DNA from: an uncultured Lentisphaeraceae bacterium
GTDB taxonomy: Bacteria > Verrucomicrobiota > Kiritimatiellia > RFP12 > DVOR01
Assembly (NCBI GenBank): GCA_949282555.1
Contig: CASDPK010000008.1
Coordinates: 3,108 to 67,107, forward strand
Length of the DNA stretch: 64,000 bases
Direction of reading: 5' to 3'
Below, one piece after another: positions 16,186 to 36,824 of the stretch. Under the pieces are notes generated by a model. That model saw nothing but the letters and a program-made list of their open reading frames with translations, made no database searches and had not been told where the DNA came from. Position 1 is the stretch's first letter, and every line of letters starts with the position of its first letter. A program made the position numbers and the translations under genes.

Positions 16186-17193
16186 TTACTTGTTCGCGGC
16201 TTCTTCGATGGCCACGGCCACGGCCACGGTCATGCCGACCATGGGGTTGTTGCCGGCGCCAATGAGGCCCATCATCTCGACGTGCGCAGGCACGGAAGAA
16301 GAACCGGCGAACTGAGCGTCGGAGTGCATGCGGCCCATGGTGTCGGTCATGCCATAGGAGGCGGGGCCGGCGGCCATGTTGTCGGGGTGGAGGGTACGGC
16401 CGGTGCCGCCACCGGAAGCGACGGAGAAGTACTTCTTGCCGGCGAGGACGCATTCCTTCTTGTAGGTACCGGCCACGGGGTGCTGGAAGCGCGTGGGGTT
16501 GGTGGAGTTTCCGGTGATGGAGACGTCCACGCCCTCCTGCCACATGATGGCGACGCCTTCGCGGACATCGTCAGCGCCGTAGCAGCGGACCTTTGCGCGG
16601 GGGCCATCGGAGAAGGCGATCTCGTTGGTGATGGTCAGCTTGCCCGTGAAGTAGTCGAACTCGGTTTCCACAAAGGTGAAGCCGTTGATGCGGCTGATGA
16701 TGTAGGCGGCATCCTTGCCCAGGCCGTTGAGGCACACGCGCAGAGGCTCCTTACGCACCTTGTTGGCCTTCATCGCAATGCCGATGGCGCCTTCGGCGGC
16801 GGCAAAGGATTCATGGCCGGCGAGGAAGCAGAAGCACTTGGTCTCTTCGCGCAGGAGCATGGCCCCCAGATTACCGTGACCAAGGCCGACCTTGCGGTCG
16901 TCGGCGACGGAGCCGGGGATGCAGAAGCTCTGGAGGCCTTCGCCGATGGCTTCGGCGGCATCGGCAGCCTTGGTGCAACCCTTCTTGAGGGCGATGGCCG
17001 CGCCGACGGTGTAGGCCCACTTCGCGTTCTCGAAGCAGATCTTCTGAATGTTCTCGACGATTTCGTAGGGGTCGAAGCCCTTGGCCTTGCAGATCTCGCG
17101 GCATTCCTCGACGGACTTGATACCATACTTATCGAGGACGGCCTGGATTTGCTTGATGCGGCGTTCGTAAGATTCAAACAGTGCCATGGTCAT
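16186..17193 (-). CDS. GGGtGRT family protein (uncharacterised, glycine-rich)
   Basis: Contains the family signature SGGGTGRTLHP. Start ATG 17193 was chosen from the context TAA-GGAGGAG-ATG directly after the upstream gene's stop. Confidence 0.8.
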   Translation of the reverse strand: MTMALFESYERRIKQIQAVLDKYGIKSVEECREICKAKGFDPYEIVENIQKICFENAKWAYTVGAAIALKKGCTKAADAAEAIGEGLQSFCIPGSVADDRKVGLGHGNLGAMLLREETKCFCFLAGHESFAAAEGAIGIAMKANKVRKEPLRVCLNGLGKDAAYIISRINGFTFVETEFDYFTGKLTITNEIAFSDGPRAKVRCYGADDVREGVAIMWQEGVDVSITGNSTNPTRFQHPVAGTYKKECVLAGKKYFSVASGGGTGRTLHPDNMAAGPASYGMTDTMGRMHSDAQFAGSSSVPAHVEMMGLIGAGNNPMVGMTVAVAVAIEEAANK

Positions 17194-17200
17194 CTCCTCC

Positions 17201-17914
17201 TTATTCGTGGCGGGGGTCAATGGACTTCACGGCACCCTGCTCCTCGGTGACGCGACCGTAGGTGCCGGTGCAGGCCTTGAGCGCCTCGTTGGCGTCCTGC
17301 CCCTTCTTCACGGCTTCCATGAACTTGCCCATGTGGACGAATTCGTAGCCGCAGACCTCGCTGTTCTTGTCGAGGTAGATCTTCTTGACGTAGCCCTCGG
17401 CCATTTCGAGGTAGCGCACGCCCTTCTGCTTGGTGGAGTACATCGTTCCCACCTGAGAGCGGAGGCCCTTGCCGAGGTCTTCAAGACCGGCGCCGATGGG
17501 CAAGCCGCCCTCGGAGAACGCGCTCTGGGTGCGCCCGTAGACGATCTGGAGATAAAGCTCGCGCATCGCGGTGTTGATGGCGTCACAGACGAGGTCGGTG
17601 TTCAACGCCTCCTGGATGGTCTTGCCGGGAAGGATCTCGGCGGCCATTGCGGCGGAGTGGGTCATGCCCGAGCAACCGATGGTTTCGACCAATGCTTCCT
17701 GGATGACGCCTTCCTTCACGTTGAGCGTCAGCTTGCAGGCGCCCTGCTGGGGCGCGCACCAGCCCACGCCGTGCGTCAGGCCGGAGATATCCTTGGTCTC
17801 ATAGACCTTGACCCATTTACCCTCTTCAGGAATGGGGGCCGGGGCGTGCTTGGCACCCTTGGCGACCGGGGTCATGCGCTCGACTTCGCTCGAGCAGGCG
17901 TAGGGACAACTCAT
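17201..17914 (-). CDS. IscU/NifU-like Fe-S scaffold domain protein with a C-terminal extra domain
   Basis: GVGWCAPQQGACKL...ETIGCSGMTHSAAMAAEILPGKTIQEALNTD...LVCDAI aligns with IscU GAPACGD...YGCGSAIASSS...KGKSLDEA..NTD...IHCS (three conserved Cys). Start 17914 has a GGAGG RBS. A 7-bp gap separates it from the GGGtGRT gene. Confidence 0.65.
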   Translation of the reverse strand: MSCPYACSSEVERMTPVAKGAKHAPAPIPEEGKWVKVYETKDISGLTHGVGWCAPQQGACKLTLNVKEGVIQEALVETIGCSGMTHSAAMAAEILPGKTIQEALNTDLVCDAINTAMRELYLQIVYGRTQSAFSEGGLPIGAGLEDLGKGLRSQVGTMYSTKQKGVRYLEMAEGYVKKIYLDKNSEVCGYEFVHMGKFMEAVKKGQDANEALKACTGTYGRVTEEQGAVKSIDPRHE

Positions 17915-17942
17915 GTTTCCTCCTTGGTTTGAGAGTGGGGTT

Positions 17943-17972
17943 ATTATACCGCCCCAACCCGTCCAACTGCAA
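17943..17972 (-). promoter_or_regulatory. Candidate sigma70 promoter TTGCAG-N18-TATAAT for the nifU-like/GGGtGRT operon
   Basis: Minus-strand -10 TATAAT at 17943-17948 and -35 TTGCAG at 17967-17972, about 25 nt upstream of the ATG. Confidence 0.4.
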
Positions 17973-18047
17973 GGGAAAACGGTGTGGAGACACGCTTGAG
18001 CGCCCCTAGGGGTGGGTTTGCGTTTCGCTTGTGGGGATACGAAAATG

Positions 18048-18076
18048 AAGAGCCGCCCTGCTCGGGCGGCTCTTTG
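18048..18076 (-). terminator. Rho-independent terminator downstream of tpiA
   Basis: Perfect 10-bp stem AGAGCCGCCC/GGGCGGCTCT, followed on the minus strand by TCATTTTCG. Confidence 0.5.
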
Positions 18077-18098
18077 AGTGGCGTCTGTTGCCTCAGAC

Positions 18099-18851
18099 TC
18101 ACTTCCCGGCGGCGACGATGGCCGCAAACGAGTCAGCCTTGAGGGCCGCTCCACCGATGAGGCCGCCGTCGATGTCGGGCTTGGCCATGAGTTCGCCCGC
18201 ATTTTCGGGCTTCATGGAGCCGCCATACTGAATGCGCACCTTGTCCGCCTGGTCGGGGTTCATCTTGGCGAGGGTGGCACGGATGAGGGCGTGCACTTCC
18301 TGAGCCTGGGTGGCGGTGGCCGTCTTGCCGGTTCCGATGGCCCAAACGGGCTCATAGGCGATGACGATCTTGGCGAAATCGGCCTGACATCCGGCGAGAT
18401 CTTGGGTGACCTGGCGGATGATGACCTCCTGCATCTTGCCCTCTTCGCGCTCTTCAAGCGTCTCACCCACGCACACGATCGGGGTAAGGCCGGCGGCAAG
18501 GGCGGCTTTGAGTTTGAGGTTCACGGTCTCGTCGGTCTCAGCGAAGTACTGACGGCGCTCGGAGTGGCCGAGAATGACGTACTGCACGCCGAGATCCTTG
18601 AGCATGGCGGCGGAGATTTCACCGGTGTAGGCACCGGATTCCTTCCAGTGCATATTCTGGGCGCCGAGGCCGATCTTGGCGCCTTCGAGGGCTTTAGCGG
18701 CGGCGGGGATGGCGGTGAAGGGGACGCAAACGACGACCTCCACGCCGCAATCGCCGTCATTGGTGGCCTTGCGGATGTCCTCGATGAGGGGCGTGGCCTC
18801 GGAGGGGGTCTTGTTCATCTTCCAGTTGCCGGCGACAATCTTGGTGCGCAT
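18099..18851 (-). CDS. tpiA: Triosephosphate isomerase
   Basis: [15 protein letters not shown], and the catalytic blocks [11 protein letters not shown] and GGSMKPENA. Confidence 0.9.
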
Positions 18852-18881: not shown

Positions 18882-19316
18882 TTACTCAACGGGACGCTTA
18901 CCGATGCAATCCTGGGGGCAGGTCTCACAGTTCCCGTCGCAGGACATTTCGGACTCATCCATCGCCAAATCATTAAAGCACTTTTCCGGGAATTCCTCAA
19001 CCGAAAGCGCATCGGCGACGGAGAAATCCTCAAAGTCGGTGCCCTCCGGAAAGGTGACAAGGTAGTAGGCTTCCGGGTCCAACCCCTCCACGGAGGGTTC
19101 CACGAATCCAGTCTCGGCATCCGTTGTCTCAACGAGGGAGAGCCCCAGTCGCTTGAAGGTATCTTCCGTGACGGCTTCGTCGTAGCACAACAGATCCATG
19201 AGATCGTAACCGGGGCAAGCGATTTGCGTTGCGGAGACGGGGCGGAGGTCAAACTCATCTTCTTCCGCCATGTCGTCCATGGCGGAAGGATCGGTGGGAT
19301 TTAGAGGCTCACTCAT
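18882..19316 (-). CDS. Small highly acidic protein with C-terminal CX3CX2CX3C motif, translationally coupled to the GspK-like gene
   Basis: ATGA overlap (start 19316-19314, upstream stop 19315-19313). Rich in D and E. C-terminus is CDGNCETCPQDC. No recognisable family. Confidence 0.5.
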   Translation of the reverse strand: MSEPLNPTDPSAMDDMAEEDEFDLRPVSATQIACPGYDLMDLLCYDEAVTEDTFKRLGLSLVETTDAETGFVEPSVEGLDPEAYYLVTFPEGTDFEDFSVADALSVEEFPEKCFNDLAMDESEMSCDGNCETCPQDCIGKRPVE

Positions 19317-22300
19317 GGCAACAGCTGGTAGTAGATGACGCGATCCGGAAGTTCGCCGTAGGCGTCGCGCCAAACAAGCGCCACGGCCCGTGCGGTGGAG
19401 AGCGGCTTGTGCTGGGAAAGATCCCGTCCGGAATTGTAGGCGATGGAGTCCGCACGCAAAATGTAGAGGAAGAGTTGCTGGCGGTCACCGAAGCATTCCT
19501 TGGCCGAGGCGACAAGGGTCGTGACGTCGTTCTGACCGAGAATCTTTCCGGTGCCTGCGGCGGCATTGTAAGCCTTGAGGCGATCGGCAAAGGAACCGGA
19601 CCCATCCGCGCCGGCAGGCTGGATGATGAAATCCTCCAACGTCTTAGGACGGGCGGGGCGGCCCTTGGTTCCCTTGTAGAGTTCCTGCTCACGCGTCCAG
19701 TCGCTGGCATTTGCGCCCACACCGCCGCCGGTCGTCGGCAGGGGGAAGAGATAATCACGGATAAAGTCATCGTACTTTGGCGCGGCAAGGCCGCCGGAGG
19801 GCACCTCAATATCCTTCAAGGTGTCCAAATCATCAAGCAGTTTGGGTGAGATCCGACCGGCGCTTTGGGCCGCACTGAGGCGATCATAGGTGACCTTGGC
19901 CGCCTGCTTGATGGTGGGGGCAATACCCAACAGTGCGAATTGTCGCAACCGCTGGCAGAGCACGTAATCATCCTGTCCCGCGAAGACATTGACGAGTGCA
20001 CGGTGCTCTTCCGGGAAGTTGTCGCCACTAAAGCTCTGGAACATGGAGCCAGTCTTGACATAGCGGTCGTAATCCAATGCGCCATCGTTGAAGTCCGCCA
20101 CAGGGAGGGTGCGGTAAAACGATTGCTTGGCCACTTTATCGTGATAATCGGCATAACTGTTTGTCAGATAGCCGCCCTTGTCACCCCAAACGGAGGACGC
20201 GACAGGGACCGGCAGGAAACACGCCTCGGCCGGCAGGAGCAATTGGTCCGTGTCGTTGTAGCCGTATCGGACATCCTCGGCCTTAAGACCCCAAGCGAAG
20301 GGCACAATGTCGGCGTGGGCTTCGGCATAACCCGTCGCGACATCCGAGGCGGAGGAAGAACCTCCGGTGATGTCGACGCCCTGCACGAAGGTCCAGTGCG
20401 GGGAAGAGAAGGAGGGCAACGGAGCAATGCCACTACCGCCGAAGTAGGCATTTCCGGAGTCCGACACGCCCAGCATGGGGGAGAGCCAGTTGTAACGCGG
20501 ATCGACGGCCGACCATGTTCCGGTGTCCGGAGAGAGGGTACTCCACGCGGGCGTGCTGGTTCCGGCAACGGCGAGTTTCCGACCACTGCCAAAGTCGAGC
20601 TCTGTGCTTGGCTCAATTTTGGGCGTCACCGTTACGGCATCGGAAAGTTTGGTTTTGCACTTGTAGCCGGTGATGGCACCGTTTTCACCTTCAATGGGCT
20701 CGGACTCCCACTCAAGTGCGAACTCCAGGACGACGGGCCGGGTGATGCGGAAGAACTGGCCGTCGAACTTCTCCATGGAGGCAGAGTTGAAGCGATCATT
20801 CAACGTCTTTGGATAATCCGTCCGCTGGCGGAGGATCTTGCCGGTGCCGACGGGGCAGATGTCCGCACTTCCACCGCCTCCTGTGGTCTTCGCACGGAAA
20901 AGGAAATCCACAGCGAAAGCCAAGCGCACCTTTGTGGCTTCGGGCTGAATGGGGGTGGCGCTTTCCTTGTTGGCGACGGGGAGATCTTTTCCGCTGAGTT
21001 CCAATTTGAGCTTCGCTCCGGACTTCAAGGGCACGGTGCCTTCAGAGAAGAGTGCACCATCGGCCGTGAGTCCGGTGTCGCCGCCGGAAAGGTCGGCAGA
21101 GGCACTTTCGGTCTTGAATTCCAACTGCTTGTTGTTTGAGACCACAACGGCAGAACCGAATGCCGCCGCAAACCCCTCTGCACCAATCGTGTAACTCTCC
21201 TCGGAGGATTCATAACCGGGGAAATAGGAACGGAGGGAAATCTCCGTTTCCGGAGCGGGGAGCTCAATGTCCAGCACAACGGAATCATCCAGCGTTGTCG
21301 GGAATTTGTCGGGAGAGGTGTAGCCAGTGGCAGGCATTCCCTCCGGCGACTTCCCTTCAAATCCTTTGAGTGCTTCGGTGAGGCCGGAAACAAAGTCGCT
21401 CCCGAGAGAAGTGTCACCATCAAAGGGGTAAGACACGTCGGAGATCATGGGGACGTTTTCGACGGTCGGTTGCGCCTGTGCGAGGAAGTCCGGGTCAGAG
21501 CCGCCGTCCGAATCCAACACCCCGGGCTGAGAATCCTTGTCAAGGTAATCGCGGAGCATTCGCAGGAAGACGGTCGGCGCATCCAACGCATTCCCATCGC
21601 TGATGGTCTTGCGGTAGAGCTCTTCGATTCGCCCGCCAACGGAGGATGCGGAGGAGGGATCGCCGATGTCTTCGGCTTTGACCTCGTCACAAGAGATGAG
21701 CGGAGCGCCATCGGACGTCGTGTTGTCTGCGGTGCCGCCGCTCTTCTCGTCCTTTCGCGTATGGCGGGGCCAGAAACTGTAAACCGAGAAGGGGGAGAAC
21801 CCTCCGATGCCCTCTTTGTAGATGGCGGATTCCCAAGAGTAGGGGTAGATGTCGCTGCCGTTGTCGGTCACCAACAGCGCATCGCTGCCACGTGCCGCAT
21901 ACCATGCCAAATCGGCGTTCGAGAGGAACGTTGGAAGATCCAGTTGGCTACTGGCGGGGTTCTGTTCGGAATCCAACAAATCATAGCGGTCGGAAGCTTG
22001 CCCGGAAGCGGAGGTGCCGGGCGCTTGGCCAAAACCGAATTCATTGCCGGTGAGGCCAATGCCGCGGTAGGGGGAGGCGGACGAAATGCCATTGATGTCC
22101 ACGGAGTCGGAGAGGTTCACCACCGCCCACGCCATGCGCCCGACAACGGCGGTGTTGATTTCCGTCTTACTGCCGCCAACGGTGCTTTCGACAGAGGGAA
22201 TCAGGGCATTGACGGGCTTCCAGCCCGCGGTCCAATCGACATAATATTTCCCGCTGTAACCTTTGTGGCTGATACCATCGTAGAAGGGCTCTTGGAGCTC

Positions 22301-22762
22301 CAACGTGGCATAGACGTTGTAGGCGATGGCGGGCGGGAGATGGCGCAACACCGTATCGTCAAGCAGATAGGCAATCGGCTCTTTGTCGGGCTCACGCTGA
22401 GTGGAGGCAGAGAACTCGCTGGACCCGGTGTTGCGGGACGTGATGAGGCGCCCGTAGTAGTCCAGATTAGGGTAACGGAAGGGGGCGAGCGCTTCAACCG
22501 TGCGGGTGTCGGGGTTGTCACGATCAAACGTCCCGGCCTCGTCTCTCTGGCTTTTGAGGGCGAAGTCCACGGTCGCACGCGCATCGGTGAAGGCCGAGGC
22601 GAGCAACTCTCGGGCAATGAGATTCCGGCGATAGGCGGCCGCGGCGGAGCGCTCCGTGCGCATGGAGATGGAGAAGGCCACGGCACTGATCATCAGAAAA
22701 CCGAGGAGCCCCAACACAATGAGCAGGGCTGAACCGCGCTTTGGATCAGAAGAATGGAACAT
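19313..22762 (-). CDS. Giant GspK-like minor pseudopilin (1149 aa) with a long Ser/Gly/Asp/Thr-rich extracellular region
   Basis: N-terminus KRGSALLIVLGLLGFLMISAVAF matches the GspK signature (R-G-x-ALL-x-VL). It is the last pilin-like gene of the pseudopilin operon. Confidence 0.6.
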   Translation of the reverse strand: MFHSSDPKRGSALLIVLGLLGFLMISAVAFSISMRTERSAAAAYRRNLIARELLASAFTDARATVDFALKSQRDEAGTFDRDNPDTRTVEALAPFRYPNLDYYGRLITSRNTGSSEFSASTQREPDKEPIAYLLDDTVLRHLPPAIAYNVYATLELQEPFYDGISHKGYSGKYYVDWTAGWKPVNALIPSVESTVGGSKTEINTAVVGRMAWAVVNLSDSVDINGISSASPYRGIGLTGNEFGFGQAPGTSASGQASDRYDLLDSEQNPASSQLDLPTFLSNADLAWYAARGSDALLVTDNGSDIYPYSWESAIYKEGIGGFSPFSVYSFWPRHTRKDEKSGGTADNTTSDGAPLISCDEVKAEDIGDPSSASSVGGRIEELYRKTISDGNALDAPTVFLRMLRDYLDKDSQPGVLDSDGGSDPDFLAQAQPTVENVPMISDVSYPFDGDTSLGSDFVSGLTEALKGFEGKSPEGMPATGYTSPDKFPTTLDDSVVLDIELPAPETEISLRSYFPGYESSEESYTIGAEGFAAAFGSAVVVSNNKQLEFKTESASADLSGGDTGLTADGALFSEGTVPLKSGAKLKLELSGKDLPVANKESATPIQPEATKVRLAFAVDFLFRAKTTGGGGSADICPVGTGKILRQRTDYPKTLNDRFNSASMEKFDGQFFRITRPVVLEFALEWESEPIEGENGAITGYKCKTKLSDAVTVTPKIEPSTELDFGSGRKLAVAGTSTPAWSTLSPDTGTWSAVDPRYNWLSPMLGVSDSGNAYFGGSGIAPLPSFSSPHWTFVQGVDITGGSSSASDVATGYAEAHADIVPFAWGLKAEDVRYGYNDTDQLLLPAEACFLPVPVASSVWGDKGGYLTNSYADYHDKVAKQSFYRTLPVADFNDGALDYDRYVKTGSMFQSFSGDNFPEEHRALVNVFAGQDDYVLCQRLRQFALLGIAPTIKQAAKVTYDRLSAAQSAGRISPKLLDDLDTLKDIEVPSGGLAAPKYDDFIRDYLFPLPTTGGGVGANASDWTREQELYKGTKGRPARPKTLEDFIIQPAGADGSGSFADRLKAYNAAAGTGKILGQNDVTTLVASAKECFGDRQQLFLYILRADSIAYNSGRDLSQHKPLSTARAVALVWRDAYGELPDRVIYYQLLP

Positions 22763-22783: not shown

Positions 22784-23326
22784 TTAGGGATTGAGGATTC
22801 GGTGACGCCCTACCGCAGGTACGAGAATGGTATACTCGTCGTCGGCGTCCTGAGCGTCGGTGACCGCCTGTTTCACGCGGATGCGGTAAGGATTGCCCCA
22901 GGGGTCATAAAGTGTGTTGCCCCGCAAGGTGGGATGGTTGGCATTGAAATAGACGGTCTTGGCATCGTTTGCCGAGGGATCGGTAAGTTTGTTGACGATT
23001 GTTCCCTTGGCTTCGTTGATGCCTTCGGAAAGGCCCAAGTCTCCCATGGGATCCCCACCGTCGTCACCATCGCCATCGGAAGTGTCGAGCATTGTCAGGC
23101 AATAGAGACGGATGGCGTCGCCCAGCGCGCGTCCCTCAGCCGTGGCCTTGACGGTACGGGCGTTTTCTCTGGCGGCGTAGGTCGAGAAAGCAAAACTTGC
23201 AATGAGGATGCCGATGATAGCGATCACCACCAACAACTCAATCAACGTGAACCCGGCACGGGCCGCATGTGCGATCTCATCGTACGGACGTGCAGGGAAT
23301 GGATTGCCTAAATGGTTCAGGTTCAT
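22784..23326 (-). CDS. Type II secretion/type IV pilus-like pseudopilin, GspG-like (carries DPWGNPY)
   Basis: Leader ...ARAG|FTLIELLVVIAIIGIL (prepilin cleavage/methylation motif). C-terminal DPWGNPYRIR matches the GspG hallmark. Start 23326 has a GAGGA RBS. Confidence 0.7.
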   Translation of the reverse strand: MNLNHLGNPFPARPYDEIAHAARAGFTLIELLVVIAIIGILIASFAFSTYAARENARTVKATAEGRALGDAIRLYCLTMLDTSDGDGDDGGDPMGDLGLSEGINEAKGTIVNKLTDPSANDAKTVYFNANHPTLRGNTLYDPWGNPYRIRVKQAVTDAQDADDEYTILVPAVGRHRILNP

Positions 23327-23376
23327 GTCGCGGTCCTCAATCCAAAGGGGTTCGTGGGCATACGCTTGTGCCGTTG

Positions 23377-24174
23377 TCACTTGTCCTCACCTTCCGGCCA
23401 AGGGCGGATATCGTCCTCAGTGCCCCACTCACCATCGGGGCCGCAGGAGGCAACGGCGATCTCGTAATCGTTGACGGTGGGGGGCGTTTGAGGTCTGATT
23501 TTGATTTTGACGGCTGGGAGCGGATAGCTGGAGTTGAAGGCGGCGTCGTAATTGCTGCCGGAGACCGTCTCAAAGGTAATGCTACCGCCCTTGAGTGCGT
23601 ATGTCGTGGAGGTGCTCTTGCCGCCGTCGTAAGGTTCTTCCTTGCGTGTCACGGAGGAGCCACCCGAATACGTCACGCGGATCAGCTCACGGAGCGCTCC
23701 GTTGCCGGAGCCTTTGAGCTGTTCGTCCGGGTCCGTCGGTGGGCGAAGAATCCAAAAATCCAGCCCGCCGGACAGTTTCCCCTCCGCCGCGAGATCACTT
23801 TCGCTTGTGAGCGGGGTTTCCCCATCCATCATCACGAAGTTGTAAGGGTCCACCATCATGGCGAGATCGCGGCCAAGCGCGCCGACAACGGCGCGGGTGA
23901 CGGATTGCGCGTCGGCGCGCTTCAAGCCGAGCGACCATGCCAGCCCTGTCTGCTGGAAGATCCCCGCGACGATGAGCACAATGATGGAGAGGATGGTCAT
24001 CGCCACCAACACTTCAATGAGCGAGAACCCTTGGCGGAGCCTTTGGAGTCCGCGGTGTACGCGATTGAGCGGTGCACCGCATCCACGCTCGCGATACGGA
24101 GCCTCTCGCCCCGAGATACGGACTCCATCGGCCGAGGCCTCAGGCTGTCCTGTGCAAAGATGCGTCAAATCCAT
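23377..24174 (-). CDS. Prepilin-type N-terminal methylation domain protein (minor pseudopilin, GspJ-like position)
   Basis: RLRQG|FSLIEVLVAMTILSIIV motif. The annotated start gives an unusually long leader, so the true start may be a downstream non-ATG codon. Confidence 0.5.
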   Translation of the reverse strand: MDLTHLCTGQPEASADGVRISGREAPYRERGCGAPLNRVHRGLQRLRQGFSLIEVLVAMTILSIIVLIVAGIFQQTGLAWSLGLKRADAQSVTRAVVGALGRDLAMMVDPYNFVMMDGETPLTSESDLAAEGKLSGGLDFWILRPPTDPDEQLKGSGNGALRELIRVTYSGGSSVTRKEEPYDGGKSTSTTYALKGGSITFETVSGSNYDAAFNSSYPLPAVKIKIRPQTPPTVNDYEIAVASCGPDGEWGTEDDIRPWPEGEDK

Positions 24175-24184
24175 GGTCGTGCTC

Positions 24185-24718
24185 CTATTTGTTCGTGGAG
24201 GTGACGAACACGTTTACCACGTAGACCGGGGCGGTTTTCAGCGGGCGTGTGTTCTTGCTGCAATCCTCTCCGGTGGCTTGGACGCAGACTTGGACGGCTT
24301 CGGTCTTCCGGTCGCCGTTGTTCACGGTTTCGATGTTCCCGGAATTGGTGACATCGGGTTCTTTCCACCATGCACGGTACCACACGCCGGAATTTTCGGG
24401 ATCTTCGTGCGCTTCCACCCTGTCGTCGTCTTCCACGGGGTCTTCCACGCGAAAGCCGAAATCGCCCTCCAACTCATCCAGCAACGTGTCGGCATCCACC
24501 ACGCCGGGCTTTTCGGCGACGGTCCGGGCGGCCCCCATGAAGCGTTCACAGAAGGCTGCCACGCGCATTTCGTTGCGGGCGGCCAAGCTTTCACGCAATC
24601 CGAGCGGGAAAAGGCCGAGCAATGCCAACGCCCCGCCGGCCAAAACGAAGATGGCCATGTTGACCTCGATCAGGGAGAAGCCTGCACGCAGGGCCGTATG
24701 AAAGGAAATTCGTCGCAT
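24185..24718 (-). CDS. Prepilin-type N-terminal methylation domain protein (minor pseudopilin, GspI-like position)
   Basis: ALRAG|FSLIEVNMAIFVLAGGALALLGL. Confidence 0.5.
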   Translation of the reverse strand: MRRISFHTALRAGFSLIEVNMAIFVLAGGALALLGLFPLGLRESLAARNEMRVAAFCERFMGAARTVAEKPGVVDADTLLDELEGDFGFRVEDPVEDDDRVEAHEDPENSGVWYRAWWKEPDVTNSGNIETVNNGDRKTEAVQVCVQATGEDCSKNTRPLKTAPVYVVNVFVTSTNK

Positions 24719-24729: not shown

Positions 24730-25641
24730 TTATTTGACGCTGACGGTACCCTGACCATCAACACTGACGGTGAAGGTGGCGTTCTTGGCATTCTTCGAGA
24801 TCGAGTGCGCCGCAGTGACCGAAGAGGCGGAGCCGGATTGGAGGCTCCCCTCGGGGCCAAAGATGAAGACCGCCCGATCGCCGCCCTCAAACGCATAAGC
24901 GTCGGGCAGAGAGAAGGTCGCCGTCACACGCACGGCCATCGGGAAGGCGCGGTCACTGGGAGCCGAGCCTTCCAGCGTCGCGACCCAAAAACCGGGGTTA
25001 CTCCGGGTGGCGCCTTCCTCGCCAATCTCAAGGTCTGCGTCTCCAGCGAGCATTTCCAACGACTTCTTCTGCCCTGCGACCCAGTAATCATAACTGAGAC
25101 GATTCTTGCGGTTGTTGTTGATTTGCTCGTTCAGATCGTCATTATCCTTTGTGGGATCATCCGCGATTTTGTCAATCCGCATAAAGGTGGACGCATCGGG
25201 GTCGAACAAGTTGATGGCTCGGGCGTTTTTGCGCAAGGCCGCGCCCAAGACTTCCCGCTGAAGGCCAAACGGAGCGAGCAAGGTTTTTCCCTCGTGCCAA
25301 ACGTTCCCGATGGATTGGAAGAGCGCGTAACGTCCCTGCTTTACTTTCTGCTTTTTACTGCCGACCACGATCTCGGTGTCGCTGTTCCAACAAACCACCA
25401 CGTGCGTTTTGCCGAGGATACAGGCCTGCTGTCGCGCCAAGAGGAGCGTGTCTCGGAGTTGGTTGCGGCTTTTGGTGACCCCTTCTTGGCGCATGGCACC
25501 GAAAAAGGAGGTGGCGGCCATGGTGATGAGCATCGCGGCGATGCCGATGACCACCATCAGTTCGATCAGTGTGAAACCCGAACGTCGGGAAAGTGTTCCT
25601 TCCCGTGCCGACGCGTCTGTCCCGAAAAACGTCATACCCAT
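24730..25641 (-). CDS. Prepilin-type N-terminal methylation domain protein (GspH-like pseudopilin)
   Basis: SRRSG|FTLIELMVVIGIAAMLITMA. Its size and position match GspH-type proteins. Confidence 0.55.
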   Translation of the reverse strand: MGMTFFGTDASAREGTLSRRSGFTLIELMVVIGIAAMLITMAATSFFGAMRQEGVTKSRNQLRDTLLLARQQACILGKTHVVVCWNSDTEIVVGSKKQKVKQGRYALFQSIGNVWHEGKTLLAPFGLQREVLGAALRKNARAINLFDPDASTFMRIDKIADDPTKDNDDLNEQINNNRKNRLSYDYWVAGQKKSLEMLAGDADLEIGEEGATRSNPGFWVATLEGSAPSDRAFPMAVRVTATFSLPDAYAFEGGDRAVFIFGPEGSLQSGSASSVTAAHSISKNAKNATFTVSVDGQGTVSVK

Positions 25642-25709: not shown

Positions 25710-26363
25710 TCAGTTCAATTGGATCACCTCTGCGAAGCTTCCTTCGTGAGGGGAGGTGACGGAGACATGATCCAAATCAAAATCATAGGTGATTTTGAGC
25801 GGGGCAAACGCTCTCGCTTGGCTGAGACGTTTGTACTTGCTGACGCCGGTCTTGTTCATTGTGACCAAGAACCCGATCATGTCACTGGCCGAAACGCCGC
25901 CGCCTGTGAGCGCATCGTCAAGTTTGGTGACGCGGCGTCCACCTTTGCAGACGTAGAACATTGAGGAATCCGTGATATAAGCGCGCTTTGCGTCATCACG
26001 CTTGCCGTTGGCATCGCGCCCAAGAAGCAACATCACGATTTCGGCATTGCCCTCCTTGGGGCGATTGTTGTTGACGGAGCCGAAGGTCGCGGAGCTAACG
26101 TCGGAGGAGTACGCCTCGGGGAGCGGATAGGCGCCATGCTCGTTCTTGTAGGCCATGATGGCACTTTCGACGATTTCCACGCAAGCGTTGCGCTTTGTCT
26201 TCTCGGCGCCTTTGATTACACGGGTCACGCCAATGACGCCCAATCCGACCAACGTGGCGAGGATGACCACCACCACCATCAGTTCAATCAATGTGAAGCC
26301 TGCACGGGAGCGTTGGGCGGCCTTGAGGGAGCGTAAGGAAGCAAGCGGAGTCGCGATATTCAT
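25710..26363 (-). CDS. Prepilin-type pseudopilin (GspG-like paralog)
   Basis: SRAG|FTLIELMVVVVILATLVGLGVIGV...AIMAYKNEHGAYP, a GspG-like N-terminal helix. Confidence 0.6.
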   Translation of the reverse strand: MNIATPLASLRSLKAAQRSRAGFTLIELMVVVVILATLVGLGVIGVTRVIKGAEKTKRNACVEIVESAIMAYKNEHGAYPLPEAYSSDVSSATFGSVNNNRPKEGNAEIVMLLLGRDANGKRDDAKRAYITDSSMFYVCKGGRRVTKLDDALTGGGVSASDMIGFLVTMNKTGVSKYKRLSQARAFAPLKITYDFDLDHVSVTSPHEGSFAEVIQLN

Positions 26364-26447
26364 GGATGAAATCCTTTTTGAGCGTTGAGGCTGGGAACGT
26401 GAGAAGAGAGGCGCGGCAATGGCAACCGCGCCATGTCTTGCACGCGT

Positions 26448-27089
26448 TTACCAACTTTGGGCGTAGACTTCGCCGTTCTTTTCACCGTCTTCCGCCCAGC
26501 ACCAAACCGCGGCGTCTCCGCGGACTTTGCCGCCGGGCACCGACAATTTGGCGGGAAGGCCATCGGAAGAATCGACGATGCCATCCTCGTTGACATCAAG
26601 GACAAATTGGTAAAGGTGATCGGTCACATCCGAACCGCTCCGGCCTTGCTTAAAGCGCTTGGCGCCGATGGGATCAAGCATGCCGTACTTCAATTCGGCC
26701 TCGTTTTCCCTGTTACGGCGGAGGCCGGCCTGCGTGGTGGAATCCGTCGCGTCGGTGTCGATATAGAGCACGTCCAAAAGGCCGGCCTTGCCCAACACCA
26801 AGCACATATCCGTGTCCATGGACTTCACGCCGGAGGAGGCGATTTTGTATTCTTCCGGCCAAAAGCCGACATCGCGGTGATAGTTGGTCCACGCCACGGC
26901 AATCTGCTTGCAGTCGTCGGCGGCATTTTTTCGACGCGCCGATTCCATGAACGCCGTGTAACCGCCGGCGGTGATGCCCCCCAAAATGCCGAGGATCACG
27001 ATGACGACGAGCAACTCAATGAGCGTGAAACCCGCACGGCGAGCGCCAAGGCCCTGAGTGCGGCGTCCGAAAGCATGCGTTCCGTTCAT
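26448..27089 (-). CDS. Prepilin-type pseudopilin (GspG-like paralog)
   Basis: ARRAG|FTLIELLVVIVILGILGGITAGGYTAF. Confidence 0.6.
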   Translation of the reverse strand: MNGTHAFGRRTQGLGARRAGFTLIELLVVIVILGILGGITAGGYTAFMESARRKNAADDCKQIAVAWTNYHRDVGFWPEEYKIASSGVKSMDTDMCLVLGKAGLLDVLYIDTDATDSTTQAGLRRNRENEAELKYGMLDPIGAKRFKQGRSGSDVTDHLYQFVLDVNEDGIVDSSDGLPAKLSVPGGKVRGDAAVWCWAEDGEKNGEVYAQSW

Positions 27090-27126
27090 AAGAATCTCCC
27101 TCTTCCTCTAGGCATGATGGCCGTAA

Positions 27127-27945
27127 TCAGTCCTCGTCGTCATCGGCGATGCCGCTGGCCGTGATGTCGTCGGCCGTCCCGAAGGCTCCATCCGGGCCGG
27201 CGGAGATGATTTCCCCGGCGCCGCCATCGTTCCGATACTTGAGGGCGTGCTCCCAGGCATCGCTCTTGGCACCTGCGGTATAACGTTGGGCGCCGCATTC
27301 GACACAGACGGTTTCTCCACTTTTCACCAAGCCATCTTTTTGGAGACGTCGCCAAGTACGGTAGATCTGCTGAAGATTGTTGTCTGCGGCTTCATTGGCG
27401 GCAGTGGCGCCCAAGGCGTCGCTCGCGTTTTTGAGCCCTCGGATTTCGGTGGCCCACGGCGTGTCTGCCGCGGGATTCCGATACATTTCTTTGTAGTGGC
27501 CCAGAAGCTCATCGGAAACGGCTTCTGAAATCACGGTTGCACGTGGCACAAAGTGTGAACACAGGCCGAACTGAATTTCGTCGGCATTGTTGCTGTTGGT
27601 GACGGCTTTGAATCCGCAGTATTTGCATCCGGGCGAGCCCGACTCGGAAACAAAGCGGAAGTCCAAAGGGGCGTACCCATTGCTATCCGTATTGGAAACG
27701 ACGGGATAATCGCCGTAGATGGCCTTGTATTCCTCGAGCAAGGTGGCGATGGCGTGGATTTGCGCGGTGGTTTCCGCGATCGCGGCTTTGTCACGCGCGG
27801 CACGGATCATTCGGAAGAGTCCCGCCGCCAAAATGCCGAGGATCACGATGACGACCAACAATTCAATGAGCGTAAACCCCGCGCGTTGCCGAATGCGCGT
27901 TTGCGCCGGCATGACGGCGCGGTTGCCAAACGATAAGTGGTTCAT
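27127..27945 (-). CDS. Prepilin-type pseudopilin (GspG-like paralog) with acidic C-terminal tail
   Basis: RQRAG|FTLIELLVVIVILGILAAGLF...EEYKAIYGDYP. Start 27945 has a GGAGGG RBS. The tail ends ...ASGIADDDED. Confidence 0.6.
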   Translation of the reverse strand: MNHLSFGNRAVMPAQTRIRQRAGFTLIELLVVIVILGILAAGLFRMIRAARDKAAIAETTAQIHAIATLLEEYKAIYGDYPVVSNTDSNGYAPLDFRFVSESGSPGCKYCGFKAVTNSNNADEIQFGLCSHFVPRATVISEAVSDELLGHYKEMYRNPAADTPWATEIRGLKNASDALGATAANEAADNNLQQIYRTWRRLQKDGLVKSGETVCVECGAQRYTAGAKSDAWEHALKYRNDGGAGEIISAGPDGAFGTADDITASGIADDDED

Positions 27946-28029
27946 GGAAAATCCCTCCGACAAAACGGAATGAAGCCTGATGGTGGGCGGGGCCGCACCA
28001 TGCCGTGCGAACCTCGCCCGCCGGGGCTG

Positions 28030-29322
28030 TTAGGCCCCGGTCTGCTGGCCGATGGTGCCGATGATGGAGATCAGCGGCATGAACATGGCGATGACGATGC
28101 CGCCGACCACGACGGCAAGGAAGATGATCATGATGGGCTCGATGATCGAGGTCATGGCGGCCACCGCGTTGTCCACTTCATCGTCGTAGGTGTTGGCCAC
28201 GCGGATGAGCATCTCGGGAAGGGCGCCGGTCTCTTCGCCGACTTCCACCATGGAAACGACCATGGGCGGGAAGACGCCGCTGGCGCCGAGGGGCGCCGTC
28301 ATGCCCTCGCCTTCCTTCACGCTGTCGTGGACGGATTGGAGCGCCTTGGAGATGACTTGGTTGCCGGTGGTCTCCTTGACGATGCTGAGCGCCTGGAGCA
28401 CCGGAACGCCGGAGCTGAGCAGGGTGCCAAGCGTACGGGTGAGACGCGCGACCACGGTCTTTTGGGTGAGTTGTCCGAAGACCGGCGCACGCAGGGCCAT
28501 GACGTCGTGGGCGTAGGAGCCGAAGGGCGTCTTGAAGAAGATCTTGGAGAGGACGACAAAACCGACGATGCCCGCGATGAGGAAGAGCCAGTAGTTTTGC
28601 ACCCACTCGGAGAGGCTGATGACGAACTGCGTAAGCGCGGGCATTCCTTCGCCGCCCATGAGGTCATCGAAGATCTGCTGGAACTTCGGAATGACCGCGA
28701 GCATCAGGAAGATCACAATGCCCAACGCGGCGCAGAGCACCACGATGGGGTAGGTCATCGCGCCCTTGACCTTGTTCTTGATCTTTTCGGCCTTTTCCAT
28801 GAACTCGGCCAAGCGGTTGAGCACCGTTTCCAACACACCGCCGGCCTCGCCGGCCTTGACCATGTTCACATAGAGGTGGTTGAAGATCTTGGGGTAGTTG
28901 CCCAACGATTCCGAGAAGGTGTTGCCGGTCTCCACGGTTTCAATCATTCCGTTGAGGGCGTCCTTGAGCGTTTCGTTGGCCGCCTGCCGGTGAAGCACAC
29001 GCAAACCGCGCAACAGGGGAAGGCCCGCATCCACCAGCGTCGCCAGCTGGCGCGTGAAGACCATCAAGTCTTTGGTCTTCACTTTGGCACGCAGGAACTT
29101 CGGGGTCTTGATTGTGATGTTTGCGGACTTTTTGGGCGCGGAGCCCTTGGCAGGCTTGGGGGCGGCCCCATCTGAAGCGTCTTCCTTGATCAGGCCGATG
29201 GCCTTGGGCGTGAGCTTCATGGCACGAATCTTTTCGATCGCGGCGCCTTGGGAATCGGCCTCGACTGTGCTAAGCACTTCCTTGCCTTGGGAATCCACTG
29301 CCTTGTACCTGAACTTGGCCAT
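28030..29322 (-). CDS. gspF: Type II secretion system / type IV pilus platform protein GspF/PilC family
   Basis: MAKFRYKAVDSQGKEV... N-terminus, two GspF-type repeats, three TM segments. Start 29322 was verified as a CAT reverse complement. Confidence 0.85.
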   Translation of the reverse strand: MAKFRYKAVDSQGKEVLSTVEADSQGAAIEKIRAMKLTPKAIGLIKEDASDGAAPKPAKGSAPKKSANITIKTPKFLRAKVKTKDLMVFTRQLATLVDAGLPLLRGLRVLHRQAANETLKDALNGMIETVETGNTFSESLGNYPKIFNHLYVNMVKAGEAGGVLETVLNRLAEFMEKAEKIKNKVKGAMTYPIVVLCAALGIVIFLMLAVIPKFQQIFDDLMGGEGMPALTQFVISLSEWVQNYWLFLIAGIVGFVVLSKIFFKTPFGSYAHDVMALRAPVFGQLTQKTVVARLTRTLGTLLSSGVPVLQALSIVKETTGNQVISKALQSVHDSVKEGEGMTAPLGASGVFPPMVVSMVEVGEETGALPEMLIRVANTYDDEVDNAVAAMTSIIEPIMIIFLAVVVGGIVIAMFMPLISIIGTIGQQTGA

Positions 29323-29383
29323 CGTCGTGTGTCCTTGTTTTGAGCTCAATGGGGCACGGCCCCAATTCCACATTGCTTTTTCA

Positions 29384-29412
29384 TTATAGCCGAAGCCTCC
29401 GACCTTCTGCAA
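29384..29412 (-). promoter_or_regulatory. Candidate sigma70 promoter TTGCAG-N17-TATAAT upstream of gspF
   Basis: Minus-strand -10 TATAAT at 29384-29389 and -35 TTGCAG at 29407-29412. These are the same hexamers as the promoter at 17943-17972. Confidence 0.4.
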
Positions 29413-33429: not shown

Positions 33430-34263
33430 ATGCAACGCTTCGCCGTCCTTGGCCATCCCATCGGCCACAGTTTCTCGCCGGTCATGCACACGGCGAGCTT
33501 TCGGAAGATTGGTTTCGACGGCGAATATGTCCGCTTGGACGTTCCGCCGGAAACGTTGGCCGACGCGCTCAACGCACTCGCCGACGAGGGGTTCACGGGC
33601 GCCAACCTCACCATCCCTCACAAGCAGTTGGCGGTGCCGATGATGGATCGGCTCACACCCGAGGCTGAACGGCTTGGGGCTGTGAATACGGTTCTCTTTC
33701 GCGACGGCAAGATGTGGGGGCACAATACCGATGGCCCCGGATTCCTTGCGGCGGCAAAGACCATGCTGGATTTTCACCCCGAGGGGCGCCGTGCGGCGGT
33801 GATCGGGTGCGGTGGCGCGGGTCGTGCGATCGCCATCACCCTCGCGCATGCGGGCGTCCGAACGTTGGGACTGATCGACTTGGATACCGCCCGTGCGGAG
33901 GCTCTTGCGCGGGAGATTTCCGAGACGTCCCCCGCGCAGGCCGAAGTTATTGGCCATGACCGTTTGCGTGAGGCTGACCTTGTGGCGCAGTGTTCGCCCA
34001 GCGGGTTGGCGGTGTTCCCTGAGCCCGCGGCCCGAATGGCGGATTTCCGCGAAGGGCAATGTCTGTACGATATTGTCATCCCTCCGGGTGCGCCCGTCAC
34101 CCCCACAATGGCAGAGGCTTCGAAAGCGGGGGTCCGGTGCGCCAATGGCGTTCGGATGCTGGTGGAGCAGGGGGCGCTTTCCTTTGCCTTTTGGACGGGC
34201 CTTGAGGCCGATCGCGAGGCGATGTGCCGCGCGGTGGAGGAAGGTTTGGCCGGGCATGAATGA
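33430..34263 (+). CDS. aroE: Shikimate dehydrogenase
   Basis: FAVLGHPIGHSFSPVMH..., LTIPHKQ, GAVNTV, and the Rossmann motif GCGGAGRA. Confidence 0.85.
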   Translation: MQRFAVLGHPIGHSFSPVMHTASFRKIGFDGEYVRLDVPPETLADALNALADEGFTGANLTIPHKQLAVPMMDRLTPEAERLGAVNTVLFRDGKMWGHNTDGPGFLAAAKTMLDFHPEGRRAAVIGCGGAGRAIAITLAHAGVRTLGLIDLDTARAEALAREISETSPAQAEVIGHDRLREADLVAQCSPSGLAVFPEPAARMADFREGQCLYDIVIPPGAPVTPTMAEASKAGVRCANGVRMLVEQGALSFAFWTGLEADREAMCRAVEEGLAGHE

Positions 34264-35314
34264 GTGGCTCATCGGGCTCCCGGAGGAACAGGCACTTTGG
34301 CTCGCCCGAGTGTCGATTGCCTTTGTGCTTTGCCTTGGGGCCATCATTGGGAGCTTCCTCAACGTCTGCATCTATCGCATCCCGTTGGGGCAATCGGTGA
34401 GTGTGCCGCGGTCGCATTGTTTCGGTTGCGGAAAGACCATCCCTTGGTACTTTAACATCCCGGTGCTCTCCTGGTTTTTCCTGCGGGGGAAATGTGCGTA
34501 TTGCGGCAGTGAGATCAGCGTGCGCTATCCCGTGATTGAGGCGCTGACGGCGGTGCTCTTTCTGCTCGTATTCCAAATGTGGGGCAATCCGGCGTTGTTC
34601 GGGTTGAGCCGCCTCCAAATCCCCGAACTGATCCCGTTCTATTGGCTCTTTGTCGCCTCCACGGTCGTGAACGTCATGATCGACTTGGATCATCGTATTT
34701 TGTTGGACCGGATCTCGTTGGGAGGGACCTTGCTCACGCTTGTCGCCTCGGCGGCCTTTCCTGTGATGCAGGGACAAACGACGCTTCTTGCCGGACTGGG
34801 GCACGCGGTGCTGGGCGCGGTGGTGGGATTCGGCACGGGATTCCTCGTCGCTTGGGCCGGTGAACGTATTTTCCTGCAGGATGCGTTCGGATTCGGCGAC
34901 GTGAAGTGGATGATGTTGTTCGGTGCGCTCTTCGGATGGAAGGGATTCTTTTACATTCTCTTGATCGCCGCAGGGGTGGGGCTTGTGATGGGGCTTTGCG
35001 CCATGCTTGCCCAGCGTGCCCGTGCGGGGCTTCGGGCGGAGCCGTTGGCGATCCCCTTTGGCCCGGCGCTGGGAACCGGGGCGCTGCTGTGGTTGTTTTG
35101 GGGGCATTGGGTGACGCGCGGACTGGAAGCGGCGGTTCTTTGGGCGCAAGCCCGCCAAGGGCTCGTGTTGGCCGTGGTGTTGCCGGTGCTGTTGCTCCTC
35201 TCGATTTGGCTGTGCGTCCGTATCTATTTCATCCGGAAAGCGGTCCGAGAGGAAGAGGCCGCCGAAGAGCTGACGCCCTTGCCCGAGAACCCAACCGACG
35301 GAGACCACCCCTGA
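34256..35314 (+). CDS. Prepilin leader peptidase / N-methyltransferase (A24 family) with C-terminal extension
   Basis: CxxC...CxxC zinc motif (CFGCG...CAYCG) and polytopic membrane domain typical of PilD/GspO. 8-bp overlap with aroE (ATGAATGA). Confidence 0.8.
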   Translation: MNEWLIGLPEEQALWLARVSIAFVLCLGAIIGSFLNVCIYRIPLGQSVSVPRSHCFGCGKTIPWYFNIPVLSWFFLRGKCAYCGSEISVRYPVIEALTAVLFLLVFQMWGNPALFGLSRLQIPELIPFYWLFVASTVVNVMIDLDHRILLDRISLGGTLLTLVASAAFPVMQGQTTLLAGLGHAVLGAVVGFGTGFLVAWAGERIFLQDAFGFGDVKWMMLFGALFGWKGFFYILLIAAGVGLVMGLCAMLAQRARAGLRAEPLAIPFGPALGTGALLWLFWGHWVTRGLEAAVLWAQARQGLVLAVVLPVLLLLSIWLCVRIYFIRKAVREEEAAEELTPLPENPTDGDHP

Positions 35315-35762: not shown

Positions 35763-36095
35763 AAACGATCGCTGGACGTCTTCGAGTTCATGCTTGACAA
35801 ACCCGGTGTCCCAGTGTACCCTATGGAGCACATAGCTTGAGTTGAGGCGGAGTCCCAGTTGGGTCATCCCGCCACGCCTCAGGCGCATAACGATGCGTTA
35901 ACGCATACATTCGTTCGTAGGGAACTACCACTTCTGTTGCAAGGACGAAGGTATTGCGGAGGCGCGTTGGGGTTATTCCCTGGCGTGTTTCTCCCGTACT
36001 GTTTTCTTGCAAGGCTGTGGTAGGCCTCCTACGGAAACGTGAACGGACGGAGGCACGCCTTAATTGTGTCTCCGGTTGAAGAGGAGACACTTGCA

Positions 36096-36824
36096 ATGAC
36101 ATCTTATCCTTCTGATGAACAGGCCCTTCGAGCGGGGATCACCAATCTCATGCAACGTTGGGAAGCGGCTCTGCCGGATGATTTGCGCGAACGTTTTGTT
36201 CCGGACGGTTTCTATCCTAACTACACGCATCAGCGTAACCGCCTGTTGTTTATTGGCCGTGAAGCGTACGGAATGACGGGGTGCGATTATGTTGACGTGT
36301 TCGACCCTATTTACCGTCGTGGATATGGGCTCGGTCGTTTTCATCGCGACATTCTTCACATTGCGTGGGGGCTTCTGAATCGAATTCCACGTTGGCAGGA
36401 CATCCCGGATGCCACGGAAATGGCTGGCCAATTTGGTAAGACGGCAAAGGAGGGTGGCCTTTCGTTCGCTTTCATGAACGCCAACAAGTGCAGCAATGAG
36501 AATGGCGACACGCCTACGAATTGGGCGGAAATGGATCGCTTCCTTGGTGTTTCGATGCCTTTTATCCGCGAGGAAATCGCACTGTTGCGCCCCGATGTCG
36601 TCATTTCGATGAACCTCAACGACAACAAAACCTATTACGAAGGTTTGGGACAACAGTATCTCTTCCACACGGGGAAGGATGGGGATGTCGCCCTTCATCG
36701 GCTCCCCGATGGAACGCTCTTTCTTGATGTTTGGCATTTCTCCGCCTGGGGCAAGGATAGTGGCACGCAACGTTACGAACCAATCGTTGAGGCGCTTCAA
36801 CACCCCGAGATCCGTTGGTGGTGA
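36096..36824 (+). CDS. Hypothetical protein
   Basis: Lower-GC ORF with no signal peptide. No confident family. There is a weak resemblance to uracil-DNA-glycosylase-fold motif spacing (FIGREAYG ... HFSAWG), unverified. Confidence 0.45.
   Translation: MTSYPSDEQALRAGITNLMQRWEAALPDDLRERFVPDGFYPNYTHQRNRLLFIGREAYGMTGCDYVDVFDPIYRRGYGLGRFHRDILHIAWGLLNRIPRWQDIPDATEMAGQFGKTAKEGGLSFAFMNANKCSNENGDTPTNWAEMDRFLGVSMPFIREEIALLRPDVVISMNLNDNKTYYEGLGQQYLFHTGKDGDVALHRLPDGTLFLDVWHFSAWGKDSGTQRYEPIVEALQHPEIRWW

Follow-up and report, generated by a model that had tools for sequence, protein, structure and literature searches.

The giant gene and its reading frame

The window analysed here, a 64,000-nucleotide stretch of contig CASDPK010000008.1 (assembly GCA_949282555.1) from an uncultured Lentisphaeraceae bacterium, carries on its minus strand, at 19313..22762, a gene for a putative giant minor (pseudo)pilin of the GspK class, which encodes 1149 amino acids (aa) followed by a TGA stop. 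GspK caps the GspI-J-K tip (PMC6211770), and an earlier note, made from the DNA letters alone, had proposed that this gene encodes an oversized relative of it. The open reading frame (ORF) starts with an ATG at 22762, roughly 10 nt downstream of a GGAG, and runs through 1149 codons with zero internal stops to a TGA at 19313-19315; we estimate the chance of an open frame this long at about 1e-16, with approximately 3.2% stop codons expected at 60% GC. The protein begins MFHSSDPKRGSALLIVLGLLGFLMISAVAF, which is how the earlier note had quoted its GspK-type N-terminus, and the size contrast drawn with GspK proteins of about 330 aa was real, as the 39 bona fide GspK sequences collected here range from 286 to 393 aa (E. 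coli K-12 GspK, 327 aa). The giant lies outside this range, being 3.5 times larger with a net excess of about 820 residues. The insert of roughly 800 aa described earlier stands as a net figure (1149 versus ~330 aa), but what is seen is an expansion within the fold, from residue ~230 to ~1095, part of which aligns with the GspK alpha-domain.

The insert had also been described as low-complexity. Overall, the composition of the giant is moderately skewed (A 10.3, S 9.7, G 9.1, L 8.9, D 8.2, T 6.5 and Y 4.3%) and acidic (D+E 13.1% versus K+R 9.1%), but its Shannon entropy stays at 3.4-4.0 bits along the entire length (40-residue windows). An AlphaFold2 model computed from 77 homologues, the check that the earlier note had suggested, was confidently folded throughout (mean predicted local distance difference test score, pLDDT, 84.5; predicted template modelling score, pTM, 0.80; 19 residues below a pLDDT of 50). 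The entropy profile and the model together rule out a low-complexity or disordered ectodomain; the insert is predicted to consist of folded modules.

Spurious long ORFs are common in GC-rich DNA, and ORFs of 420-424 aa are present on the strand opposite the giant gene, which raises the question of whether the gene is an accidental ORF or the product of sequencing errors that fused several genes. However, among 5.8 billion proteins searched there were 92 independent homologues that are full-length (1100-1199 aa) and align end to end with the giant (99-100% query coverage) at 34-100% identity. Because these 92 full-length homologues exist, the giant size is a family trait and not a frameshift artefact. 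Together with the conserved motifs at both ends of the protein and the single confident model, they rule out a frameshift or fusion, and we regard the residual probability of an artefact as negligible. A frame broken into several genes, which the earlier note had named as a possible refutation, was thus not encountered: the frame is intact.

Relationship of the giant to GspK

When compared by hhalign with the single E. coli GspK sequence, the family aligned over 18 N-terminal residues with 22% probability, and the comparison became informative only once an alignment of 39 true GspK proteins (286-393 aa) was used. Against this alignment, family residues 1-72 matched GspK 1-72 (89% probability, E 2e-6), and the sub-profile of residues 5-107 matched GspK 2-98 (92.6% probability, E 4.5e-7). 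The sub-profile of residues 202-230, which covers the NLN strand, gave a weak match to GspK 85-113 (E 0.04), while that of residues 381-447 matched GspK 125-192, the DW.D.D...GAED region, with 70.8% probability (E 3.8e-5). Distant giants from the wider superfamily described below aligned with GspK 4-117, through the NLN motif, over 114 columns (89% probability, E 2e-6). All matches of the giant family to GspK are co-linear, and a GspK hidden Markov model (HMM) built here matched, in the window, the giant ORF only. The proposed N-terminal similarity therefore survived the profile-profile test (89-93% probability, E 2e-6 to 4.5e-7), and the GspK-like identity suggested earlier is borne out by these matches, a GspJ-like neighbour and a conserved operon.

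The N-terminus has the prepilin-type leader expected of a GspK protein, with Gly at position -1 followed by a hydrophobic alpha1-N (KRG/SALLIVLGLLGFLMISAVAF, where the slash marks the cleavage site). This leader (residues 1-10; 22733..22762, minus strand) is short, basic and of class III type, ending in Gly10 (MFHSSDPKRG/S); it aligns with the QRG/VALLIVL leader of E. coli GspK, and G10-L17 are invariant in the 77 homologues. We infer that cleavage occurs after Gly10. Position +5 of the mature protein is Ile (S-A-L-L-I), and the corresponding E. coli GspK sequence is V-A-L-L-I, so that Glu5 is absent in both. All seven neighbouring pseudopilins have Glu5 (G-F-[ST]-L-I-E) and only the giant lacks it. 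A missing Glu5 is a specific hallmark of the tip subunit, the other pseudopilins carrying this residue.

Anatomy of the predicted fold

Following the leader, residues 11-76 (22535..22732, minus strand, as are all segments given here) form alpha1, hydrophobic and then amphipathic, with a helix at 12-76 in the model. Residues 182-240 (22043..22219) form a beta-hairpin (strands 182-195 and 198-216 in the model) that ends in the GRMAWAVVNLSDSVDIN motif (NLSDSVDIN) and is the probable counterpart of the GspK 'D.q.cFNLN' strand. After a first inserted region (residues ~230-380), residues 381-447 (21422..21622) appear to be a remnant of the start of the GspK alpha-domain. They carry a D-Y-x-D-x-D motif (LRDYLDKDSQP) and PTVENVPM; D405, Y406, D408, P432, E435 and M439 are invariant among the homologues, and the invariant D405-Y406-x-D408 aligns with the D-W-x-D-x-D motif of GspK. 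The inserted modules of residues 451-750 (20513..21412) are beta-rich and of beta-sandwich type, matching generic beta-sandwiches with a carbohydrate-binding or Ig-like resemblance in the fold search, and are the proposed exposed ligand-binding region. They are followed by a conserved alpha/beta region (residues 751-1090; 19493..20512) with invariant DPRYNW, SSPHW, RYGYND, PEEHR and GQND and a column entropy of 1.1-2.0 over most of its length. This region had no significant profile match to GspK, and its DPR.N motif is common to distant giants too. Finally, residues 1091-1149 (19316..19492) contain three C-terminal beta-strands (1096-1148; QQLFLYILRAD, ARAVALVWRD and RVIYYQLL), which we propose return to complete the pilin beta-sheet in cis and which, in our own reading, mirror the GspK C-terminus (YFTLSTES, WQSHIFFNR and IYRRTLQ).

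The closest solved structures to the predicted fold are GspK and XcpX, with GspK on top (224 of 280 residues aligned). As in 3CI0 chain K, the predicted fold is a pilin fold with an alpha-domain inserted in the beta-sheet. The insert comprises about 865 residues, between ~230 and ~1095, from the hairpin to the C-terminal strands, is built of folded beta-sandwich and alpha/beta modules, and occupies the position of the roughly 180-residue GspK alpha-domain. In the model, three strands follow the insert, and the insert starts with a segment apparently homologous to the GspK alpha-domain, both of which favour a GspK-type insertion point. A Foldseek search against the PDB returned nothing at E <= 0.001, GspK being absent, perhaps because hundreds of inserted residues separate the parts of the GspK core and an aligner that works locally and in sequence order cannot span them. 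Residues 1-60, 211-240 and 1081-1149 have the lowest column entropy and residues 451-750 the highest, indicating that the filament-assembly core is the most constrained part of the protein and the sandwich modules are the freest to vary.

With the fold read from a model, we regard as established the fold class, the missing Glu5, the gene position, the conservation pattern and the folded insert. On this basis the giant probably serves a type II secretion-like type IV filament machine of a gut Kiritimatiellia bacterium as its tip subunit of the GspK/PilX class. Several results weigh against this assignment. The N-terminus that the earlier note had called diagnostic escapes the curated models: a Pfam scan of the giant found no family at E <= 1, T2SSK (PF03934/PF21687) included, and NCBIfam GspK (NF037980, 130-bit cut-off) gave no match for the giant and 11-19 bits for its relatives, over the N-terminal ~60 residues. 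A profile of the 77 homologues had zero matches at E <= 10 among all PDB sequences, and sub-profiles of residues 760-1149, the C-terminal strands likewise, had no significant match to GspK. In the operon described below, one minor pseudopilin is called I-like tentatively, from its position only. As regards the type of filament, no secretin, ATPase or GspC/L/M genes were found in the operon or the scanned parts of the window.

An alternative explanation is that the giant is a membrane-anchored envelope or periplasmic protein, for example a scaffold or an enzyme, which has only its N-terminal anchor in common with pilins and never becomes part of a filament. The lack of a curated pilin signature would fit such a protein, as would the lack of a detectable pilin relation in residues 230-1095 except for 381-447, and the invariant polar residues in 751-1090 (DPRYNW, PEEHR, GQND) could form a catalytic or binding site. 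However, it is the pilin-core elements that are most conserved, GspK is the top fold match, the giant gene is placed strictly after H, I and J in every locus, and the missing Glu5 is that of a tip subunit. We therefore consider the envelope protein improbable and retain the tip pilin.

A conserved pseudopilin operon ends with the giant

The operon lies on the minus strand in the order GspF, three G-like genes, H, I, J, an extra pseudopilin gene and the giant. Its first gene (28030..29412) encodes a 460-aa GspF/PilC platform protein (Pfam T2SSF, E 8e-66) that scores 405 bits with NCBIfam PilC and 401 bits with GspF, both slightly under the equivalog cut-offs. Three GspG-like pseudopilins of 278, 213 and 217 aa follow (25710..27963), all with N_methyl matches, the 278-aa protein also with a T2SSG match (E 1e-7). 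The next gene (24730..25641) encodes a GspH-like minor pseudopilin of 303 aa, which matches NCBIfam GspH over residues 21-98 (E 5e-11, under the cut-off) and whose position is conserved. A putative GspI/PilV-like minor pseudopilin of 177 aa (24185..24718), preceding the J-like gene, had no specific PDB sequence match and weak NCBIfam matches to Verru_Chthon B (E 3.5e-4) and PilV (E 0.003). The GspJ-like minor pseudopilin (23377..24174; ORF of 265 aa) resembles T2SS GspJ, XcpW and EpsJ in its structure model. This identity came from the model and not from a profile search, as ortholog profiles of the I-like, J-like, H-like and extra proteins gave generic alpha1 matches or none against PDB sequences. 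Since its homologues have 226-255 aa, the 265-aa ORF probably starts too early, the true start probably lying some 30-40 codons downstream.

Canonical type II secretion system (T2SS) operons have J and then K directly. Here, an extra 198-aa pseudopilin with Glu5 (22784..23380; Pfam N_methyl, E 3e-8) lies between the J-like gene and the giant, a position conserved in every syntenic locus; its ortholog profile matches the N-termini of major pilins in the PDB (PilE1, PilA, GspG). Neighbours of the giant also gave weak NCBIfam matches to the B, C and D proteins of the Verru_Chthon cassette, which are pseudopilin-like. A prepilin peptidase gene (33893..35314, plus strand; Pfam A24_N_bact, E 1e-33; Peptidase_A24, E 8e-12; ORF over-extended at the 5' end) lies on the other strand, at a distance of ~4.5 kb from the operon start and ~11 kb from the giant. 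Seventeen loci, with identities as low as 36%, keep the gene order from GspF to the giant, and in every locus examined the giant comes after H, I and J, which is the placement of GspK. A distant superfamily member of 1003 aa has the same layout, with GspF, seven small proteins and the giant.

Some features of the smaller pseudopilins were noted besides. The GspJ-like protein ends in an invariant CGPDG.WGTEDDIRPW, with a weak match to the GspG C-terminal loop (3G20, E 0.15), and the 278-aa G-like protein (27127-27963, minus strand; Pfam T2SSG) carries a similar SAGPDGAFGTADDI motif. The G-like pseudopilins, at 213-278 aa, are far above canonical GspG (the E. coli K-12 gspG gene has 438 nt, ~145 aa).

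The same GspK-class tip subunit could also belong to a classical periplasmic T2SS pseudopilus. Its modules would then stay inside the cell as an enlarged piston head and engage either secreted cargo, such as large glycoside hydrolases or sulfatases, or the secretin gate. The closest structures are indeed T2SS GspK and XcpX, the neighbour resembles T2SS GspJ, XcpW and EpsJ, the operon opens with GspF and includes pseudopilins of GspG type that carry a T2SSG motif, the expansion apparently lies where GspK has its alpha-domain and not before the last strand as in the pilus-type ComZ and CpaL, and the organism has secreted-type glycan-degrading enzymes, for example a GH101 protein. However, variability peaks in the inserted sandwich module, a pattern more in keeping with an exposed surface under diversification than with a part of a periplasmic machine. 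The G-like proteins exceed canonical GspG, and there are three of them plus the extra pseudopilin beside K; the GspF protein scores equally well with the PilC model, and the operon is without GspC, L, M, D and E. We judge the periplasmic pseudopilus possible but rather unlikely, and tentatively favour a type IV filament that displays the giant at its tip.

Family and distribution

The 92 homologues are all annotated as 'hypothetical' and have no Pfam domain, and the named ones come from metagenome-assembled genomes (MAGs) of Kiritimatiellae. A scan of GTDB species genomes returned 36 loci, all from gut MAGs of the Planctomycetes-Verrucomicrobia-Chlamydiae (PVC) group. These MAGs belong to Kiritimatiellae/Kiritimatiellia, 'Ca. 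Spyradenecus', 'Lentisphaeraceae' and, in a few cases, 'Verrucomicrobia bacterium UBA', and were sampled from, among others, buffalo colon, roe deer caecum, yak rectum and Hadza humans. The Kiritimatiellae-type operon also occurs in records with Firmicutes titles, 'Agathobacter rectalis' (CAVDHG010000007.1) and 'uncultured Christensenella sp.' (CAYSYT010000019.1); these labels most likely reflect bin contamination or mislabelled MAGs and not real transfer.

Searched with a profile, a library of 1.84 billion cluster representatives yielded 1088 proteins at E <= 0.001 (659 at E <= 1e-10), which amounts to at least 1088 superfamily clusters at 50% identity. Among the matches listed, nearly all superfamily proteins have 900-1220 aa and are matched in 3-5 separate stretches. 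Looking up the taxonomy of these wider members through their clusters gave almost no names. The orthologue group is therefore nested in a much larger superfamily of giants, whose common motifs are the N-terminus, GR.A.AV..SD..D[IV]N, DY.D.D..P...P.VE.VPM, DPR.N and the RQQLFL...RAVALVWRD C-terminus. The expansion is thus common to the relatives, as both the 92 full-length orthologues and the wider search indicate, which answers the question the earlier note had raised about related genomes. A second giant paralogue was not found in the window. Literature searches found no description of giant GspK-type proteins, Kiritimatiellota and Verrucomicrobia included.

Comparison with known systems

Compared to GspK and XcpX (3CI0 chain K and 5VTM chain X), the giant has a similar leader and start of alpha1 (KRG/SALLIVL versus QRG/VALLIVL, without Glu5), what appear to be the same NLN-type hairpin and D-[WY]-x-D-x-D motif, and three C-terminal strands that seem to follow in matching order, and is likewise encoded by the last gene after H, I and J. 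It differs in being 3.5 times larger, with ~820 extra folded residues at the position of the alpha-domain, and in comparison to GspK it falls below all curated HMM thresholds, has an extra pseudopilin gene between J and K, and is encoded in an operon without GspC, D, E, L and M. GspK itself has two canonical Ca2+ sites (PMC6211770), and no function has been assigned to its alpha-domain (PMC8179133, PMC13533445).

Verru_Chthon cassette protein A (TIGR02600, a model of 1296 positions) is similar to the giant in exceeding 1000 aa, in coming from the same superphylum and in its GspK-like N-terminus. However, TIGR02600, the only NCBIfam model with a match to the giant, covers residues 10-56 only, with 11.4 bits (E 0.051) against a cut-off of 332 bits, which rules out membership, and weak matches were obtained in 4 of 45 superfamily representatives. 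Compared at the N-terminus only, it is a different family.

Bulky tip pilins are known from other machines. ComZ, from the competence pilus of Thermus thermophilus, is a GspK-like pilin with an insert of ~380 residues that was argued to fit the tip only (PMC6561018). Whereas this insert is a DNA-binding beta-solenoid located between the penultimate and the last strand (PMC6561018), that of the giant has ~865 residues of sandwich and alpha/beta type, starts with apparent homology to the GspK alpha-domain and is followed by three strands. As ComZ combines a GspK-like pilin with a large DNA-binding insert (PMC6561018), and as a CinA-domain gene lies divergently upstream of the operon here, the giant might act as a DNA receptor, like ComZ, at a competence pilus tip. 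To our knowledge, CinA is not itself a DNA-uptake protein. We consider the DNA receptor very improbable, since the giant is acidic and its neighbourhood is without ComEA, ComEC and DprA genes; a tip pilin with another ligand is preferred.

Other systems join a large tip mass to a PilK-type sheet through a C-terminal strand, which is given in cis by GspK-type pilins and by CpaL/TadG of Tad pili, and in trans by PilY1/PilC (paired with PilX/PilK) or by MshQ (~1200 aa, paired with MshP) of type IVa/MSHA pili (PMC13533445). Large insertions are found in those PilK homologues whose systems have no separate tip adhesin (PMC13533445). The giant differs from the PilY1 pairs in that its operon has no separate PilY1-like gene and that no beta-propeller was present among the 60 listed fold matches, on which basis a PilY1-like propeller was rejected. 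It is about twice the size of CpaL and has three C-terminal strands after the insert, not one. Modular pilins, such as PilB (vWA) and PilC (lectin) of S. sanguinis and CofB, are similar in carrying a tip-displayed module that often binds proteins or glycans (PMC8179133, PMC9934059), and tip-pilin modules in general commonly bind proteins, glycans or DNA (PMC8179133, PMC9934059). However, their modules are appended C-terminally via a linker, while that of the giant is inserted within the fold. The largest modular pilin in an InterPro-based survey had 860 aa (PMC8179133). That survey could not have found the giant family, because the family is without an InterPro or Pfam signature.

Proposed role at the filament tip

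Tip complexes decide when type IV filaments start growing and what the filaments bind. In the mechanism that we propose, the prepilin peptidase, whose gene lies ~11 kb away, would cleave the leader of the giant behind Gly10. Through alpha1 and the C-terminal strands, which it would provide itself (in cis, as GspK does), the mature protein would join the I-like and J-like pseudopilins, and the resulting complex would start and cap the filament. Too bulky for the filament body, the giant would then stay at the tip, where the ~865-residue insert would be displayed and residues 451-750 could contact an external ligand. A glycan or a surface is the most plausible ligand because of the sandwich folds and the glycan-degrading gut host, with GH101 encoded in the window. 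One polypeptide would thus combine roles that type IVa pili split between PilX/PilK and PilY1.

A wider proposal, which we hold tentatively and which may well prove wrong, is that PVC-group bacteria (Kiritimatiellae, Lentisphaerae and some Verrucomicrobia) possess a superfamily of GspK-type tip pilins of 0.9-1.2 thousand residues, with at least 1088 clusters at 50% identity and no Pfam or literature description, in which the adhesin role, assigned elsewhere to PilY1, MshQ or grafted modules, is built into the GspK alpha-domain; the surface organelle of these gut bacteria, specialists on glycans, would carry a hypervariable beta-sandwich tip with which to take hold of mucin from the host or polysaccharide from its diet.

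Bulky pilins at filament tips are established in principle; new here are how large the protein is, that the expansion makes use of the GspK alpha-domain position, and how extensive the unannotated superfamily is. The part at this position is more than four times larger than in GspK and is made up of successive folded modules; its size is conserved throughout a large family, suggesting that the site is an evolvable platform for display. The family had been overlooked, with no Pfam or InterPro signature and only 'hypothetical protein' annotation despite its 1088 cluster representatives. Gut Kiritimatiellae are uncultured or poorly studied glycan degraders, and the proposed tip module would be a concrete starting point for testing how they adhere to substrates or secrete enzymes.

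Neighbouring genes and the rest of the window

Directly downstream of the giant, an ATG overlapping its TGA (ATGA) starts a gene (18882..19316, minus strand) for a very acidic 144-aa protein with a C-x3-C-x2-C-x3-C motif. The gene was found in this position in 16 of 17 loci; at the remaining locus it failed the ATG-start filter, and a 148-aa gene is present there. The protein has no Pfam match and no signal peptide, and it ends in an invariant CDG[ND]C[ED].C.Q[DE]C[IV]GK.PV; some orthologues add an N-terminal Cys/His-rich stretch. Judged from its sequence, it looks cytoplasmic and metal-binding, and appears translationally coupled to the proposed tip pilin. It is followed by tpiA (18099..18851, minus strand), encoding a triose-phosphate isomerase of 250 aa, and, downstream of tpiA, by a conserved pair at 16186-18202 (minus strand) consisting of a GGGtGRT-family protein (E 1e-196) beside a protein with a weak NifU-like N-terminus.

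At 4784-7591 (plus strand), a 935-aa protein contains a GH101 endo-alpha-N-acetylgalactosaminidase domain (E 1e-68). The GH101 family acts on mucin-type O-glycans, and the protein fits a gut mucin- or glycan-degrading lifestyle. Two long ORFs, at 55302-57761 (plus strand, 819 aa) and 61835-63766 (minus strand, 643 aa), matched no Pfam family at E <= 0.001 and are candidate genes only. The stretch at ~36000-43700 has a lower GC content (51% versus ~60%) and contains genes for a protein of 832 aa with ankyrin repeats, another of 582 aa with nine Sel1 repeats, and a rhomboid protease; with its eukaryote-like repeat proteins, it is possibly a horizontally acquired island.

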